Shown here: piece by piece, positions 3,679 through 51,334 of the stretch
Layout: each line of letters opens with the position of its first letter
Position numbering within the stretch: the stretch's first letter is position 1
Sequence record: MH791411.1
Length of the DNA stretch: 64,000 bases
Origin: Escherichia phage Ecwhy_1
Strand: one strand, 5' to 3'
Made by a program: the position numbers and the translations under genes
The notes under the pieces: generated by a model
What the model saw: the letters and a program-made list of their open reading frames with translations, nothing else
Databases searched by the model: none
What the model was told of the DNA's origin: nothing

Positions 3679-5643
3679 ATGAGTATAAATCGAATTAGAG
3701 GTGATGGTGGTGTAATTATAGATAGTCAGGCATTTCTAGAATTACCTAAAGCACCGACTAAAGAAACCGCTGATGTGGTTAGATCAGGGATGATTAGATA
3801 CAATAAAGGATGGAAAGCATTTGAAGGTGTACTAGACTTTGAAGATGGTTCAATGGCATATCGACGTTTTGCAAACCTAGATGCAAACGGTAAACTTCTT
3901 ACTTCCCAATTACCAGATTCAGTAACTAGTGGTTTACAATTTGTTGGTACATATAATCCCATCCCAGATGATATCGATCCACCTTTAGCACAAACTCCAC
4001 TACCAGCACCATCACCATCGCTTAATGGTGATTATTATGTCGTTCGTGGTATAATGGATGCCGCACAAGCACATTATGAAGCAAATAATCCACAAACAAG
4101 TCCTGTTACATTTACACCTACAAATCCAACTGGACAAGGTAATTGGATTGAAATTTTATATTATGTTGACTCTAATCCAAATATATCTGGTGCTAAACTA
4201 GTAACATACGCTTTTGCTAGAATTATTACTGCATCTATTCCCAGTACTGGACATGATGGCCTTGAAAATTTAGCAACAGATACTGACTTGACCAAACCAT
4301 TTGCATCTGGTGTTCCAATGAACCAAACTGCACTTTCAGATGGTGATTGGATTATTATAACTGAAGATAAGAATATACGTCTTCGTCAGTCAAGAACAAG
4401 CATTTCCGCTGCTTCAGTATTATATGACAATACTGTAATGATTGCAAATCATCGCCAATTTAGAACAAACGCAGGGACCGTTCAAACATCCATAGATAAC
4501 GTTGTGATTGAGTGTTTACGTAGAACTGGCGATTCCATGTATAATGATGGAACAGACGGCTCTGGGCGTTTTGGGGTGGTGTATGGCAGTGCAGCAGCAC
4601 CAGCATTGACATTTAATAATAATCCGTTTGACCCAACGAACAACCCAGGTAATGACCCAACTAAGTGGTCCGATGCTAATACTGGTATATTCCATCCAGC
4701 AGATGATGCAATTGGTTTTACAACAGCCGGAACTGAGCGTGTTAGAATTAATAATGGAACATTAACATTATTCCAAACTACCGCTACACCAGCAGCTACG
4801 CCAGTAATACGTTTTGATAATGCATCAAACACAAACGTAGGGATAAGTGCAAGTAGTAATATTATTTCTTTAAGTTCAATGAATAAAGTTCAAGTTGAAT
4901 TTAAAAATGGTGAATCACATTTTCATGGAAATATTATTGTAGATGGATCAACATCACTAACTGGTGATTTAAACGCAGGTAACATCACTGCCAGCGGGAA
5001 TTTAGTTGTTAAAGGTAATACAACACTAGGCGACACTACTGGTGACACTATTACAGTTAATGGTGTTAGTACTTATAATGCAAATACTAATTTCAATGGA
5101 ACTAATAACAAATTCAAAAACATAAACTTACTAGAGAATGGTGTATTCACATTAGAAAGTACTACAAACCAAAGTGATATAAAACTACTTGGTGCAGACT
5201 TACGTTTCACTATGGGAAGTTATGCTGATGTAAGTATATATGATAACGGTGTTATTCGTACTCGTTTCAACCGATATGGTATTCAATTACCAGTACTGGC
5301 TACAATTGATAACTCAGTTGGTGTTGATGGTATGATTGCATACTCAAATACCGAACGTACATCGATGCAGAAGGTCCAAGGACAATGGGTTCCAATTGGT
5401 TCTGGTTCTGTACGTACTGACCCGTTTACTGCGTCAGCGTGGGTTTTAAACGGCTCATATTACACATTAACAGTAACTGCTAGTAACATAGTAACTGCTG
5501 AAATTCAAGAACTCGTAAGTACTGGTGTTTACACTCGTGTTGAAGTTGATAGTGTTACATTCAATGGAACAAGCGTAGTGTTCAGTATTCCTGCAACTCC
5601 TGATGTGAGATTTGCCGGACGTACACTGGTTACATTAAGATAA
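3679..5643 (+). CDS. tail fibre protein
   Basis: 654 aa; N-terminus (GMIRYNKGWKAFEG) is the type commonly seen at tail-fibre N-termini, followed by Asn/Thr/Gly-rich beta-type sequence; GAGGAAA RBS. Confidence 0.65.
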   Translation: MSINRIRGDGGVIIDSQAFLELPKAPTKETADVVRSGMIRYNKGWKAFEGVLDFEDGSMAYRRFANLDANGKLLTSQLPDSVTSGLQFVGTYNPIPDDIDPPLAQTPLPAPSPSLNGDYYVVRGIMDAAQAHYEANNPQTSPVTFTPTNPTGQGNWIEILYYVDSNPNISGAKLVTYAFARIITASIPSTGHDGLENLATDTDLTKPFASGVPMNQTALSDGDWIIITEDKNIRLRQSRTSISAASVLYDNTVMIANHRQFRTNAGTVQTSIDNVVIECLRRTGDSMYNDGTDGSGRFGVVYGSAAAPALTFNNNPFDPTNNPGNDPTKWSDANTGIFHPADDAIGFTTAGTERVRINNGTLTLFQTTATPAATPVIRFDNASNTNVGISASSNIISLSSMNKVQVEFKNGESHFHGNIIVDGSTSLTGDLNAGNITASGNLVVKGNTTLGDTTGDTITVNGVSTYNANTNFNGTNNKFKNINLLENGVFTLESTTNQSDIKLLGADLRFTMGSYADVSIYDNGVIRTRFNRYGIQLPVLATIDNSVGVDGMIAYSNTERTSMQKVQGQWVPIGSGSVRTDPFTASAWVLNGSYYTLTVTASNIVTAEIQELVSTGVYTRVEVDSVTFNGTSVVFSIPATPDVRFAGRTLVTLR

Positions 5644-5650
5644 TAAAAAA

Positions 5651-5678
5651 GGGAGACATAAGTCTCCCTTTTCTTTTA
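5651..5678. terminator. bidirectional rho-independent terminator between convergent genes
   Basis: Perfect hairpin gggagac-ataa-gtctccc (5651-5668) flanked by aaaaaa upstream and ttttctttt downstream; lies between the plus-strand fibre gene (ends 5643) and minus-strand thyA (ends 5676). Confidence 0.7.
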
Positions 5679-37732: not shown

Positions 37733-38173
37733 TTATTGTAAAACTTTGAGTTTGTAAAGCATTCCTTCACAAAAACTCATAATGTCTTCTAGCGTGTTAG
37801 TACTACCATAGTCTTCAGCCTCTTCTAGCATAGCATGAATGGCTTTACATTGACTAACATATTCTTCAAGAATTGGTACACAATCCTCGATAGGGGTAAA
37901 ACGATAACTGTTACCAGTACCTACCTGCAATGCCCCGCGAGTGTTCATAATACCCTCTACAAATGCATCAACGTACTCAGGTAACTCTTTGTATAGTTCA
38001 TCCAATTGTAGGTGCTTCGTGTAGAAATGGCTCTGTAAATGCCAGTTGTGAGCAGCAGCACTTAAAAATAAACTATTCTCAATAAATGTAAGTAGTACTT
38101 CATCATAAGAACTATCTTCTTCAGTATCTCCGATAAAGTCCATTACATGTCGTAAATCATTAATATTTTCCAT
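37733..38173 (-). CDS. hypothetical protein, possibly ferritin/Dps-like four-helix bundle
   Basis: 146 aa; AAAHNWHLQSHFYTKHLQLDELYKELPEYVDAF loosely resembles the Dps/ferritin-like His/Glu/Asp motif region. Weak assignment. Confidence 0.45.
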   Translation of the reverse strand: MENINDLRHVMDFIGDTEEDSSYDEVLLTFIENSLFLSAAAHNWHLQSHFYTKHLQLDELYKELPEYVDAFVEGIMNTRGALQVGTGNSYRFTPIEDCVPILEEYVSQCKAIHAMLEEAEDYGSTNTLEDIMSFCEGMLYKLKVLQ

Positions 38174-38203: not shown

Positions 38204-38632
38204 TTAGTTAATAATAAAGGTAACTTCAGGATTCATTTCTGAAACTGCATTTCTCTTACTTCTATTCCATAGTACTCTATTGTTATATAATGAAGAATCA
38301 CAAATTATAAGTAAGCAATTCCTTAATCTACTTACAGTACTTTGATTACTTAAATCAGTTTCTGTAACAAAAAATACATTATCAGGAACTTCTACAGGAA
38401 TTGATTTATCAAAGAAGAAAACTACAATAGGTCTGTTTGTATGAACTAAATTAATAAAGTCTAAAATACTGTTATAAAATTCAGTTCCTTTGTTTAAACT
38501 TAATGGATCTTTGATTCTCTTCAAATAGGTCTGAACCAAATTATGATCGCTTTTGATTTGATACTCAAAATATTCTTTGAATAACATTTGTGTTAATTCA
38601 GATGTATTGGATATTTTCGTTGTGTTACTCAT
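38204..38632 (-). CDS. hypothetical protein
   Basis: 142-aa ORF with ATG start. Confidence 0.45.
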   Translation of the reverse strand: MSNTTKISNTSELTQMLFKEYFEYQIKSDHNLVQTYLKRIKDPLSLNKGTEFYNSILDFINLVHTNRPIVVFFFDKSIPVEVPDNVFFVTETDLSNQSTVSRLRNCLLIICDSSLYNNRVLWNRSKRNAVSEMNPEVTFIIN

Positions 38633-38769
38633 TCACTTCGTTCTCTCGTAACTCAAGAAGTCACTACGTTTACTTCGTAAACTAGTTCCTTCTGAAAATG
38701 ATAATGTACTTTAAAAGCTTGACGGGATTTGTTGAGGACTATTTCATCCCCCCGCAGGGGAATGAAGGT

Positions 38770-38796
38770 AATAAAAAAGAGACAATTAAGTCTCTC
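38770..38796 (-). terminator. rho-independent terminator ending the long non-coding region
   Basis: Hairpin agagac-aattaa-gtctct (38779-38796); on the minus strand followed by tttttta. Confidence 0.6.
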
Positions 38797-39322
38797 TTGA
38801 CGATGATGGCATCGGATATTATCGAATTGCGAATTTCTCAAATTTTGGACGGATCTTTCCTGTACCAAAATTTAGAGAGCGAAAGCGGGTTGCTCGGTTT
38901 CTCTCTATCGCAGTCATATGCAACGGTCGCTGGTCTTTTCATCAACAGCACTCAGTACTAAACTCTATTCGATCAAAGTAGTACCTGTTCTCAAATTTTG
39001 GACGCAACTTTCTTGTAAAATCGCGTCCACAATCCTTGAACTCCCTTAGCAAATTCGTAAGGTGCGAACCTTATACATCTATCTAGGAACTCTCTGTGTG
39101 CTTATTGGAGTTCTTTATACAGCCGTGTCGCCGTGATTCGTGGTCTTATCTCGTGTTTGTTTGATTGCCAGTACTCTAACAGGTTTCTTTTGCTGTTCGC
39201 TACAACGGTAAAGCTCATCTATCCTTTACATTTTCAAGAGAAGTAGGTTCTCATTATCCATTTTTCAATGTCCGTTGTCATTTTACAATATACATTATAT
39301 CACTAGGATGTATTATGTCCCG
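38797..39322 (-). other. structured non-coding region (candidate ncRNA or regulatory region)
   Basis: About 0.5 kb with no convincing ORF on either strand, visibly more G+C-rich than its flanks, with two related stem-loops (aaattttgg..ccaaaattt at 38840-38873; ttttggacgc..gcgtccacaa near 38993-39032), a long hairpin at 38873-38907, and a possible extended -10 (TGATATAAT on minus, plus 39294-39302). Confidence 0.3.
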
Positions 39323-39736
39323 TTACATGTATACCTTTTTCAAATCCTTGGAACAACGGTCAAAAATTGTGTTGATGAATTCGACATCCTCTTTGATATT
39401 GGAGTCTATAGCATCATTCTCGTTTCTTGTTGTGTTCCTGTATTTGTGTTCAGGGTGATTGTATACCACCTTGACTACATTATTTAGGTCTACAAAAAAT
39501 GACGATTTTTGCGTATAGGAAGCCTGAAGCTTGATGAGTTTACCATCGTTTTGTAGATTAGTCTTGTGAATTAGTTCTTCAATACCATCTAAATGGCTAT
39601 AGCTATCCTGTTCTTTGACGAATGTAACAGTTACCAGTACTGACTTCTCATCTCCAAAGTCAGAGATATTTTTAACAGCACTGATGATTTCTAAGTTTGA
39701 AAAATCTAATTCTTTTAGCATTACAAATATTTCCAC
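39323..39736 (-). CDS. hypothetical protein
   Basis: 137-aa ORF. Confidence 0.45.
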   Translation of the reverse strand: MEIFVMLKELDFSNLEIISAVKNISDFGDEKSVLVTVTFVKEQDSYSHLDGIEELIHKTNLQNDGKLIKLQASYTQKSSFFVDLNNVVKVVYNHPEHKYRNTTRNENDAIDSNIKEDVEFINTIFDRCSKDLKKVYM

Positions 39737-40088: not shown

Positions 40089-40120
40089 AAAAAAATAGGG
40101 ACTCGATTTCTCAAGTCCCT
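40089..40120 (-). terminator. rho-independent terminator after the HNH gene
   Basis: Hairpin agggact-(10 nt)-agtccct (40097-40120); on the minus strand followed by attttttt. Confidence 0.55.
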
Positions 40121-40131
40121 ATCATAACATA

Positions 40132-40743
40132 TTAATTGTGATTATTCAATTTCTTTTGTTCTTTTTTTAGAGCTTTCATATGTCGTCCAAAATCACGAAC
40201 ATGCCATATATGGTCGGTTTCCCATAGTTCTGTACGTAAACGGCGTTCTTCCAATTCTTCTGGCGTAGGAATTTTAGATTTCTTCTTATCTTTATTGAAA
40301 AAATCATTCATATGTTCTTCCAGTAGATTTCTACCCTTAACTTTTTCCAGGAATTCATCTACTGATTCAGTTTTATTAGAACGAAGACTGTTACAACGTG
40401 AACACATGGTGTTGTAATTTGACTCTAAATCAGGTCCACCCTTAGATGCTAGTTGGTTATGATCTACTGTCATCAGTACTTCATATAGACCACAAACTGC
40501 ATAGACATTTAAGTGAGGTTTACCATATACCGGATCAGTGCTATGTGAACGCTCAATGCGAACTTCAGTGGCTTCAATACCACACGCAACGCATTTACGA
40601 TTCTTAACGAATGTAAGTACTTTTTGTGGGAAGTATCGGAAAGTAACACCGTTATATGTATAGCGTTTCATCTGTGTACTTCTTTGATTTAACTCATCAA
40701 GAAGTGATAGTTTGGCAACATAGTAGACCTGATATTTTGACAT
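40132..40743 (-). CDS. HNH-family endonuclease (free-standing, possible homing endonuclease)
   Basis: 203 aa; CVACG ... VDHNQLASKGG ... NYNTMCSRCN gives the HNH motif with zinc-binding cysteines. Confidence 0.65.
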   Translation of the reverse strand: MSKYQVYYVAKLSLLDELNQRSTQMKRYTYNGVTFRYFPQKVLTFVKNRKCVACGIEATEVRIERSHSTDPVYGKPHLNVYAVCGLYEVLMTVDHNQLASKGGPDLESNYNTMCSRCNSLRSNKTESVDEFLEKVKGRNLLEEHMNDFFNKDKKKSKIPTPEELEERRLRTELWETDHIWHVRDFGRHMKALKKEQKKLNNHN

Positions 40744-51264: not shown

Positions 51265-51309
51265 ACATATCCTTGTAATTTAGATATTAGTTACTGTATT
51301 TATGAATGT

Positions 51310-51334
51310 AATAAAAAAGCACCCATTGGGTGCT
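51310..51334 (-). terminator. rho-independent terminator after nrdG
   Basis: Hairpin agcaccc-att-gggtgct (51318-51334); on the minus strand followed by ttttttatt. Confidence 0.65.

Follow-up and report, generated by a model that had tools for sequence, protein, structure and literature searches.

The locus considered here raises a simple question: what fills the 690 bp at positions 38633..39322, between the minus-strand open reading frames (ORFs) 38204..38632 and 39323..39736, in a 64,000-nt stretch of Escherichia phage Ecwhy_1 DNA (record MH791411.1; this whole stretch is termed the window)? Only short, overlapping ORFs are found in this gap on either strand. Its G+C content is 0.40–0.435 compared with 0.25–0.36 in the flanks, in keeping with the elevated G+C mentioned in a preliminary description of the window. 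That description had set the extent of the noncoding region at 38770..39322; the gap itself is confirmed, but its true span is the larger one given above. We conclude that the gap is very probably an autonomous minus-strand gene cassette, consisting of a pseudoknotted noncoding RNA (ncRNA) of ∼515 nt and a conserved 3′ extension, for which we infer an action in trans related to conflict. That the region is a functional structured ncRNA gene is highly probable, and a function of the RNA in conflict or as part of a ribonucleoprotein (RNP) is put forward tentatively.

By its sequence, the source of the window is an Asteriusvirus, a jumbo phage of Escherichia coli resembling 121Q and PBECO4. Escherichia phage EC.P1 and three other records match the region at 100% identity, 121Q matches it at 97%, and PBECO4-like phages at ∼95%. 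Sensitive blastn searches also find the noncoding stretch at 66–71% identity over ∼480 nt in other genera, namely Mimasvirus (GAP32, CBB, XbC2), Eneladusvirus (BF, pEa_SNUABM, fHe-Yen9-04), the 7t3/Munch/Kae01 group, and the Erwinia phages Kaldavass and Hallingskeid, and match a 49-nt core in RaK2 and K64-1. Across RaK2-like jumbo phages, identity of the gap ranges from 66% to 100%. An alignment (A1) of 30 nonidentical homologs, written in the sense of the window minus strand, contains no ORF of at least 20 codons, on either strand, that is common to more than 13 of the 30 sequences, and indels of lengths not divisible by three are spread along its whole length. The preliminary description had asked whether related genomes carry an intact gene at this place; none was found in any relative.

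The cassette has its own conserved signals for the start and the end of transcription. Its parts are listed below in window coordinates; helices are additionally given by an index p (win_A), for which the window coordinate equals 39315 − p.

39294..39321, minus strand: promoter of host type from a promoter scan, with the −35-like GGGACA (39321..39316), a 16-nt spacer, and the extended −10 element TGATATAAT (39302..39294)
38773..39287, minus strand: core ncRNA of ∼515 nt, bounded by the predicted start site and the last U of the terminator U-tract; supported by nhmmer, covariation, hold-out sequences, and minimum free energy (MFE)
38795..38790 / 38783..38778 (stem) and 38778..38773 (U-tract), minus strand: intrinsic terminator AGAGAC/GUCUCU with loop UUAAUU and U6 (p 520-525 / 532-537)
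38633..38772, minus strand: conserved 3′ extension, which reaches the start codon of the next ORF

Transcription is predicted to start at ∼39287 ± 3. The sequence TATAAT is invariant in 30 of 30 homologs, which bears out the possible extended −10 element noticed earlier near 39294..39302, and the TG that precedes it is nearly invariant. A TGAAAC/TGGAAC/GGGACA box is located ∼17 nt upstream of TATAAT, and the combination of TGnTATAAT with a TGRAAC-like box is kept in every copy, also in those of the prophage and of E. coli that are described below. For phages CBB and GAP32, a second promoter class with the −35 element TGAAACG and a classic −10 element has been described, mostly upstream of DNA-synthesis genes (PMC5259590). 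Compared with that description, TGAAACG is exact in copy A of GAP32 and CBB, TGGAACG in BF is close, TGAAAC is present in a Citrobacter prophage and in a metagenomic relative (L150), the window has GGGACA, and the E. coli copies have TGGGAT.

The intrinsic terminator proposed at 38779..38796 likewise holds up, as a hairpin followed by U6 (U6-7 among homologs) in which four of the six stem pairs carry compensatory changes. The sequence of the stem varies by lineage and its pairing is kept. A simple terminator scan did not list it, and the stem is absent in a minority of paralogs (L120, L158; copy C of 121Q and the 336-kb copy of BF and pEa49). A simple scan also reported a plus-strand "terminator" at 38877..38895 that is the antisense of the PK3/P12 region (see below) and is most likely a false positive.

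Helices were derived with RNAalifold on alignment A1, followed by a column-pair scan and inspection for long-range helices that RNAalifold cannot represent. RNAalifold yields 68 pairs, 34 of them compensatory. The curated fold, in which the well-aligned helices are counted, has 17 helices and 89 pairs, and four of the helices are pseudoknots. Compensatory changes among related phages had been suggested as a check on the stems, and two-sided changes are indeed observed in 51 of the 89 pairs, compared with 36 in shuffled alignments and 15–17 when partners are slid by 1–3 columns. In the same three comparisons, the fraction of cells that are paired is 94.8% versus 80.9% and 35–43%, the number of cells with two-sided changes is 374 versus 112 and 27–53, and the covariation score is 0.393 versus 0.150 and 0.03–0.07. 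None of 500 shuffles reaches the observed values, except for the number of further pair types (105 observed versus 101.5 shuffled), which is as high in 99 of the 500. Predicted folding of the RNA is better than in 100 of 100 dinucleotide shuffles (MFE z-score of −3.84).

Because the fold was derived from the same alignment as the counts, it was also examined in 15 hold-out sequences that were found later by motif scans and added with mafft (--add --keeplength). All 15 keep 91%–100% of the pairs. Eight of them are divergent, with 71%–83% identity to the nearest training sequence: the Citrobacter prophage copy, a metagenomic relative, the E. coli island copy, extra Eneladusvirus paralogs, and three further metagenomic copies. 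These eight retain from 80 of 82 to 87 of 89 pairs and show new pair types. The paired columns hold 123 G·U or U·G cells versus 30 A·C or C·A cells. This excess identifies the minus strand of the window as the RNA strand, and the orientation of promoter and terminator agrees. The earlier suggestion of a stable minus-strand ncRNA that ends at the terminator thus gains support from the conserved promoter and terminator, the covariation, and the G·U asymmetry, which together make such a transcript probable. The elements of the fold, all on the minus strand, are as follows.

39202..39278, minus strand: 5′ pseudoknot, S1 interlocked with P3 and enclosing hairpins P1 and P2
39278..39272 / 39208..39202, minus strand: S1, ACAACGG/CCGUUGU (p 37-43 / 107-113); two-sided changes in 6/7 pairs
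39270..39259, minus strand: P1 hairpin (p 45-48 / 53-56)
39246..39219, minus strand: P2 hairpin (p 69-79 / 89-96) with the conserved loop GAAAAUGUA; two-sided changes in 7/8 pairs
39214..39212 / 39201..39199, minus strand: P3 (p 101-103 / 114-116); two-sided changes in 2/3 pairs
39075..39196, minus strand: central domain with P4, P5, PK1, and P6
39196..39192 / 39123..39119, minus strand: P4 (p 119-123 / 192-196); 3/5 pairs compensatory
39182..39179 / 39134..39131, minus strand: P5 (p 133-136 / 181-184) with near-invariant GCAGAAGAAACCCGUUAG flanks
39128..39126 / 39077..39075, minus strand: PK1 (p 187-189 / 238-240); 2/3 pairs compensatory, UA/CG and GC/AU
39113..39087, minus strand: P6 hairpin (p 202-207 / 223-228); 6/6 pairs compensatory
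39073..39058, minus strand: P7 hairpin (p 242-247 / 252-257), within 38987..39073, which also holds the invariant GCUAAGGGAG and P8
39041..38987, minus strand: P8 (p 274-279 / 321-328), which bears insertion module 1
38821..38984, minus strand: 3′ domain with P9, PK2, P10, PK3, P11, and P12
38984..38955, minus strand: P9 hairpin (p 331-336 / 355-360)
38973..38967 / 38827..38821, minus strand: PK2, P9 loop AUCGAAU with AUUCGAU (p 342-348 / 488-494)
38949..38929, minus strand: P10 (p 366-369 / 383-386)
38924..38920 / 38893..38889, minus strand: PK3, GUUGC/GCAAC (p 391-395 / 422-426)
38912..38908 / 38832..38828, minus strand: P11 (p 403-407 / 483-487); 3/5 pairs compensatory, UA/CG/AU
38878..38836, minus strand: P12 (p 437-440 / 476-479), which bears insertion module 2; 4/4 pairs compensatory
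38813..38799, minus strand: P13 hairpin (p 502-505 / 513-516) with U·G to C-G variation

Particularly clear are helices P6, P12, S1, P2, PK2, P11, and PK1; the complementarity of S1 can also be seen by eye in the individual sequences of the alignment. The downstream strand of PK2 is 140 nt from the P9 loop and directly abuts P11. Four of the seven PK2 pairs are compensatory and 99.5% of its cells are paired, with pair types that include CG in 16 and UA in 14 sequences, AU in 16 and UA in 14, and an end pair that is AU, GC, UA, or CG. The stem extension of P9 is short, with three pairs of which two covary, and the loop is left almost wholly engaged in PK2; the extension and PK2 may be alternative states. 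Support for PK3 comes from two events, a change from G-C to A-U in copy B of GAP32 and CBB and a change from C-G to U-A in the 336-kb copy of pEa49. Because of gaps in the alignment, P1, P7, P8, and the insertion hairpins were judged by inspection of each sequence rather than by pair counts. For example, P8 is a hairpin of variable length in every homolog, such as GCCA-GAAA-UGGC in copy A of GAP32.

The preliminary description had also listed a long hairpin at 38873..38907. The strands AGAGAG and CUCUCU can pair there, but they lack covariation and this hairpin does not belong to the conserved fold. Instead, CUCUC covaries with GAGAA in P12, and the enclosed GCAAC pairs with the upstream GUUGC as PK3. 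The ∼480–520 nt that come after the promoter contain blocks with no or almost no variation among the sequences (GAAAAYGUA, GAUGAG, GCAGAAGAAACCCGUUAG, CACGGCAAUGCGGC, CUAGAUAGA, GCUAAGGGAG, CGACCGUUGCA, GAUAGAGAGAAAC, and GAGCAACCCGC). Some of them are invariant in 30 of 30 sequences, and many of the invariant unpaired stretches are rich in purines.

Two related stem-loops built on a repeated core ∼150 bp apart had been noticed at the outset, and they are real. A 30-nt direct repeat with the core ttctcaaattttggacg is present at 38835-38864 and 38988-39017 (plus-strand coordinates); the two copies are 90% identical and 153 bp apart. On the RNA strand, each copy supplies the 3′ half of an optional insertion module, which is a hairpin followed by ...GAUCCGUCCAAAAUUUGAGAA. 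Module 1 (repeat copy 38988..39017) is located at the tip of P8, where many homologs lack it, and module 2 (38835..38864) at the tip of P12. Both modules are present in the window, only the first in copy B of BF, only the second in copy A of GAP32, and neither in copy B of EC.P1. This pattern suggests an arm that homologs can acquire or lose as a module.

Conservation continues for ∼165 nt beyond the terminator, which, like the multicopy nature of the family, goes beyond what was described earlier. The 3′ extension holds the following elements.

38766..38743, minus strand: post-terminator hairpin of 10 bp, UUCAUUCCCC-UGCG-GGGGGAUGAA
38724..38718, minus strand: CGUCAAG, the end of the post-hairpin motif CCUCAACAAAUCCCGUCAAG, which repeats the 3′ strand of P13
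38682..38668, minus strand: further hairpin, GUUUAC-GAAG-UAAAC

The post-terminator hairpin and the motif that follows it (CCUCAACAAAUCYCGUCA(A)G in its family form) are found in every homolog, including the prophage and E. coli copies, and once in the window. For two further hairpins downstream, position is conserved and sequence is not. In the paralogs that lack the terminator stem (copy C of 121Q and the 336-kb copy of BF and pEa49), P13 leads directly into the post-terminator hairpin, and this hairpin is therefore presumably part of the RNA, at least there. In other copies, the 3′ extension could be included in a longer form of the RNA through read-through. The heptamer CGUCAAG is present in the 3′ strand of P13 (38799..38805) and again ∼90 nt downstream (38718..38724), past the terminator and the hairpin; the two sites correspond to columns ∼609-616 and ∼699-707 of alignment A1. 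In 30 of 30 homologs, both sites carry the same variant (CAAG, CAG, or CUUCAAG in RaK2), even when paralogs of the same genome differ from each other. The two heptamers may be alternative partners in P13, two sites for one factor, or repeats that matter at the DNA level.

Most jumbo-phage records carry matches at four to five places per genome by BLAST. Full copies were located at four places in Eneladusvirus and at three in Asteriusvirus, with one only in RaK2; nhmmer recovered the most divergent paralogs. In EC.P1 the copies are at 169.3, 254.3-255.1 (the copy of the window), and 306.7 kb, all on the same strand, and in BF and pEa49 they are at ∼30, 175, 259, and 336 kb. Locus A is the locus of the window; in GAP32, CBB, and BF it follows a large conserved ORF and precedes an ADP-ribosylglycohydrolase gene or small genes. 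Locus B lies between the genes for endonuclease VII and a baseplate hub protein, where the RNA points against both neighbors and ends at a bidirectional terminator. Locus C is at 192.8 kb in 121Q and at 306.7 kb in EC.P1. Altogether, the RNA is found in at least four types of jumbo-phage locus and in two temperate contexts, and no neighboring protein is shared across the loci; the flanking ORFs are unrelated by Pfam, PHROGs, and PADLOC. Within the window there is a single copy (nhmmer, 39299..38718, minus strand). A search for a second one with blastn (word size 7) and nhmmer gave only short matches to the terminator region, at 5634..5670 and 51302..51319 (81–94% identity over 18–37 nt), which are probably terminators of the same type.

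Paralogs appear to exchange sequence. In the window, copy A has the same rare PK1 variant as copy B of EC.P1 (L017), with GGCGACACGGC / GAUGUAU at 39075..39128, and the terminator stem (38775..38796) is identical in the two; copy B of 121Q carries the common PK1 variant. The shared variant and terminator are a likely sign of gene conversion between paralogs. The single RaK2 copy (L014:521-1973) is the most divergent member of the family, at 260 bits, and is without the standard terminator stem. It lies directly downstream of RaK2_00244, a putative RNA polymerase sigma-factor gene. A general link between the RNA and sigma factors was considered and rejected, as the ORF upstream of copy C in 121Q is not homologous to the RaK2 gene.

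The family also extends beyond jumbo phages. When one genome per prokaryotic species was scanned for motifs, the single match was in Citrobacter amalonaticus P55 (NZ_JBALIF010000001.1; L138:1845-5730), where the RNA alone resembles jumbo phages. A serine integrase gene of 520 amino acids is immediately upstream, with type IV pilus genes of the host beyond it, and an ORF of 165 amino acids and a divergent gene for a CI/LexA-type repressor are downstream. From the integrase, repressor, and host pilus surroundings, we conclude that the Citrobacter copy is in a temperate prophage. The same order of integrase, RNA, 165-codon ORF, and CI repressor is found on a metagenomic contig (L150), beside ABC-transporter genes. 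In E. coli, a chromosomal copy is present in two of 5,426 complete genomes (LR-29-1 and EEC_W5). In LR-29-1 it is part of a ∼10-kb island (L154:4791-15341; NZ_AP027515.1, ∼3.473-3.484 Mb) between ffs, which encodes the signal recognition particle RNA, and ybaA. There, the RNA (L154:8999-9583) is inside an unannotated gap of 1.4 kb, and the island also carries a tyrosine integrase gene disrupted by IS3, a serine recombinase gene, and candidate defense genes of the PDC-M45 type (dual-OB, DUF488, DUF4326). Prophage and E. coli copies keep the promoter box, the extended −10 element, the core, the terminator with compensated stem changes, the post-terminator hairpin, and the CGUCAG repeat. A scan of metagenomes gave 15 loci, all of them true homologs and most on contigs of jumbo-phage size, and a search of a plasmid collection gave no match. 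Some motif-scan matches in IMG/VR, on G+C-rich contigs (L135, L136, L155, L156), were dropped as chance matches after inspection or nhmmer.

Several other explanations for the locus were weighed against an autonomous ncRNA gene. One that had been raised early is that the gap is the remnant of a lost gene or intron, a neutral leftover with chance hairpins. The only points in its favor are the missing ORF and the blanks or tiny hypothetical coding sequences left by annotators, and the comparative data refute it, leaving it a chance close to nil: relatives carry the same noncoding RNA under structural purifying selection and without a conserved ORF, identity across genera is 66–71%, some blocks do not vary in any of the 30 sequences, compensatory changes affect 51 of 89 pairs, no relative has an intact gene at any locus, and group I and group II intron models are unmatched. 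A type I toxin–antitoxin-like or other small-protein cassette, with a structured mRNA like that of hok, which mobile elements carry in several copies, is a far-fetched alternative. In line with it, the present cassette is a multicopy unit of 0.5–0.7 kb with promoter and terminator that is found on phages as well as in a prophage and in an island, it has strong mRNA-like long-range pairing, and the invariant AAGGGAG resembles a Shine–Dalgarno sequence. However, AAGGGAG is not followed by a conserved start codon, non-triplet indels run throughout the alignment, ORFs of at least 20 codons vary in length and frame with none in more than 13 of 30 homologs, and the antitoxin RNAs of Rfam are unmatched. 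It is also very unlikely that the RNA is a cis-acting leader or attenuator, riboswitch-like, that would set how often transcription passes the terminator into ORF 38204..38632 and the genes that follow. In the window, the RNA is co-oriented with the downstream genes and conserved sequence reaches the start codon; furthermore, the duplicated CGUCAAG could provide alternative P13 partners, and the terminator stem is absent in some paralogs. Yet the downstream genes differ at every locus and show no homology, and the size and the four pseudoknots far exceed those of known leaders. At locus B there is nothing to regulate, because the next gene is convergent and the bidirectional terminator closes the unit.

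Two further readings concern DNA replication and mobility. ColE1 RNA II, the plasmid replication primer, is a promoter-driven transcript of similar length and needs a defined fold. A replication-origin element of this kind, or of the T4 oriF/oriG middle-promoter type, would produce a structured transcript that forms a persistent RNA–DNA hybrid and primes DNA synthesis, with several origins per 350-kb genome. The dispersed copies on one strand, the G6/C4 hairpin and the A+T-rich stretch after the terminator, and the resemblance of the promoter to the CBB class (TGAAACG plus −10) of DNA-synthesis genes (PMC5259590) are all likenesses to origin transcripts. We nevertheless regard this as a distinctly unlikely account. 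The present fold, with four pseudoknots and long invariant single-stranded blocks, is far more elaborate than known primers need; the efficient-looking terminator precedes the proposed hybrid region; no skew inflection is seen at the gap; and copies beside a prophage integrase and in a small E. coli island are in unexpected places for a lytic origin. The unrelated contexts, which include convergent genes and a nonphage chromosomal island, speak generally against the earlier idea of a regulatory or replication/packaging region. We also consider it unlikely that the RNA is a selfish, nonautonomous mobile element, such as an ORF-less intron-like or transposon-associated RNA whose structure would be selected because it helps the RNA itself to spread and not because it benefits the phage. 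Such an element would fit with the presence, in each genome, of at least three to four full copies at unrelated intergenic sites, with a cassette architecture that is identical between jumbo phages, the temperate prophage, and the E. coli island, with the parallel variation of the CGUCA(A)G copies that flank the terminator and hairpin, with the optional repeated modules, and with the visible gene conversion. In opposition to this idea, neither terminal inverted repeats nor target duplications are seen at the cassette ends, the adjacent genes do not consistently include one for a transposase, a reverse transcriptase, or a homing endonuclease, and the Rfam models of mobile-element RNAs, among them group I, group II, and HEARO, are all unmatched. 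Moreover, the paralogous loci are syntenic across genera, and the copies are therefore old and stable rather than recently transposing.

If the cassette is an autonomous ncRNA gene, it might belong to a known class. A covariance-model scan had been suggested as a check, and no family of Rfam 15, which includes GOLLD, ROOL, OLE, HEARO, RNase P, group I and II introns, tmRNA, 6S, and antitoxin sRNAs, matches the gap: the whole window has no match at the gathering score, the RNA in seven homologous loci has none, and a search of 38500..39500 with E up to 10 gave only three chance-level matches (E 3-8). ARAGORN finds no tRNA or tmRNA genes in the window, consistent with the absence of tRNA signatures noted before. 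In a survey of the literature on jumbo-phage ncRNAs, which took in a jumbo-phage review from 2026 and the papers that report the CBB, phAPEC6, and Sharanji genomes, the RNA is undescribed, although such an absence is not proof that it is unpublished. The family therefore appears to be undescribed.

GOLLD and ROOL are large "ornate" ncRNAs of phages and prophages, mostly from Firmicutes and relatives. The present RNA resembles them in having a length of several hundred nucleotides, many helices and pseudoknots supported by covariation, and long invariant unpaired stretches, and also in being a free-standing RNA gene of phages and prophages whose function cannot be read from its neighbors. Thus, by loose standards of this type (at least ∼500 nt, many supported helices and pseudoknots, and a free-standing phage gene), it falls among such RNAs. 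It differs in that it does not match their models, occurs in phages that infect Enterobacteria, and has at least three to four paralogs per genome. The frequent adjacency of GOLLD and ROOL to tRNA genes is also not shared, since the window has no tRNA gene and the nearest one to any copy is ∼4 kb away (L066). Finally, GOLLD and ROOL form multimeric cages, and self-assembly is conceivable for the present RNA too.

Other comparisons were less fruitful. Large ribozymes such as bacterial RNase P RNA and group I introns are of comparable size and likewise have multiple pseudoknots and invariant purine-rich junctions. By eye, some short motifs, such as CAGAAGAAACCCGUUA and ACAGAGCAACCCGC, resemble what we take to be conserved regions of RNase P RNA. 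This identity was rejected, as there is no model match even with E up to 10, the look-alike motifs come in the opposite order to that in RNase P RNA, and the helices cannot be mapped onto its topology. Group I and II introns were rejected because the RNA is intergenic and matches no Rfam intron model; furthermore, its own promoter and terminator and the lack of flanking exons indicate that it is not an intron. A hammerhead-like arrangement of CAGAUGAG-stem-GAA was also considered and was rejected by eye: position 4 is A rather than U, and the "GAA" after P3 is variable (GAA/GAU/GCA/GUU). The Pseudomonas jumbo phage PA5oct, which its authors relate to 121Q, RaK2, and GAP32, produces two noncoding transcripts of 235–450 nt (ncRNA001 and ncRNA002) that were detected by RNA sequencing and are highly expressed throughout infection (PMC7318152). 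They are similar to the present RNA in being noncoding RNAs of a jumbo phage and differ in being without a reported structure. They were rejected as homologs, given a best E of 0.88 with nhmmer --max and the presence of none of the invariant motifs of the family.

In its genomic organization, the cassette is most reminiscent of phage "morons." It is a self-contained promoter–terminator unit between unrelated genes, it is common to virulent and temperate elements, and in the latter it is located near an integrase in an accessory region. The features that define this type, which are a conserved promoter of its own, a terminator of its own, and unrelated neighborhoods, are all present. Whereas the usual moron carries a protein gene, this unit carries a large structured RNA; it is also multicopy and anciently syntenic in jumbo phages. 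The moron-like distribution includes one copy beside candidate defense genes. With the size and complexity of the RNA and its invariant unpaired purine-rich junctions, this distribution makes a ribozyme, an RNP scaffold, a decoy, or a self-assembling RNA the most plausible kinds of function.

A mechanism can be proposed on this basis. Host RNA polymerase would transcribe a discrete, abundant, and stable RNA of ∼515 nt, possibly with a longer read-through form. The RNA would act in trans, not on its neighbors, and the cassette would be portable, as a moron is, between virulent and temperate elements. It might bind or process a conserved enterobacterial or phage component in conflicts between phage and host or between phages, and the two optional repeat modules could serve as peripheral docking or binding arms. 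A bolder version, which we consider doubtful, is that the RNA represents a class of its own among large RNAs that catalyze or self-assemble, with a complexity like that of RNase P, GOLLD, or ROOL but at home in phages of E. coli and related hosts. It would move between virulent jumbo phages, temperate phages, and chromosomal islands as an RNA-only "moron" and, as a ribozyme, a decoy, or a cage, would directly strike a component of the host or of a rival phage.

Some points weigh against an autonomous, trans-acting ncRNA gene or limit its reach. The fold and most of the counts come from one alignment, and the hold-out sequences lessen this circularity without removing it. Independent compensatory events are fewer than the cell counts, because many of the sequences are paralogs or close relatives or have been gene converted. 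The start site, the 3′ end, the stability, and the abundance of the RNA are predictions. Conservation and hairpins continue beyond the terminator, so the discrete 515-nt RNA may be one isoform only, or the terminator may be partly structural. What suggests an action in trans and a part in conflict is limited to portability, copy number, complexity, and the two temperate neighborhoods.

New classes of large, intricately folded RNAs from bacteria and phages are rare, and RNase P, OLE, GOLLD, ROOL, and the HEARO/omega RNAs each opened new biochemistry. Comparative support for the present family is unusually good, with four pseudoknots and a fold that hold-out sequences keep, and the family crosses the divide between virulent and temperate elements. 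By an estimate from copy number and cassette size, a jumbo phage with several copies devotes ∼2-3 kb of its genome to this RNA family. Because the phages infect E. coli, Salmonella, Klebsiella, and Erwinia, knockouts, pull-downs, chemical probing, and cryo-electron microscopy should be straightforward.

The findings also correct the annotation of the genomes examined, in which the loci are mostly left blank or carry tiny "hypothetical proteins" that differ from record to record. In 121Q, 7t3, fHe-Yen9-04, Kaldavass, Hallingskeid, and others (L001, L003, L004, L006, L012), coding sequences for hypothetical proteins of 23-86 amino acids have been placed inside the RNA genes. These are on either strand, show no conservation from one record to the next, and are probably spurious.

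Two ORFs that neighbor the window copy, from the DUF5856 and DUF7325 families, are unlinked to other copies of the RNA. ORF 37733..38173 belongs to DUF5856 and is annotated in 121Q and Turkey5 as a Dps-like or starvation-inducible DNA-binding protein, and ORF 39323..39736 belongs to DUF7325 and is called a "structural protein" in the annotation of 121Q. Two genes upstream of the RNA promoter is an ORF for 203 amino acids (40132..40743, minus strand), annotated as an HNH endonuclease in 121Q and A4, which is followed by a strong terminator hairpin of 13 bp at 40123..40094.

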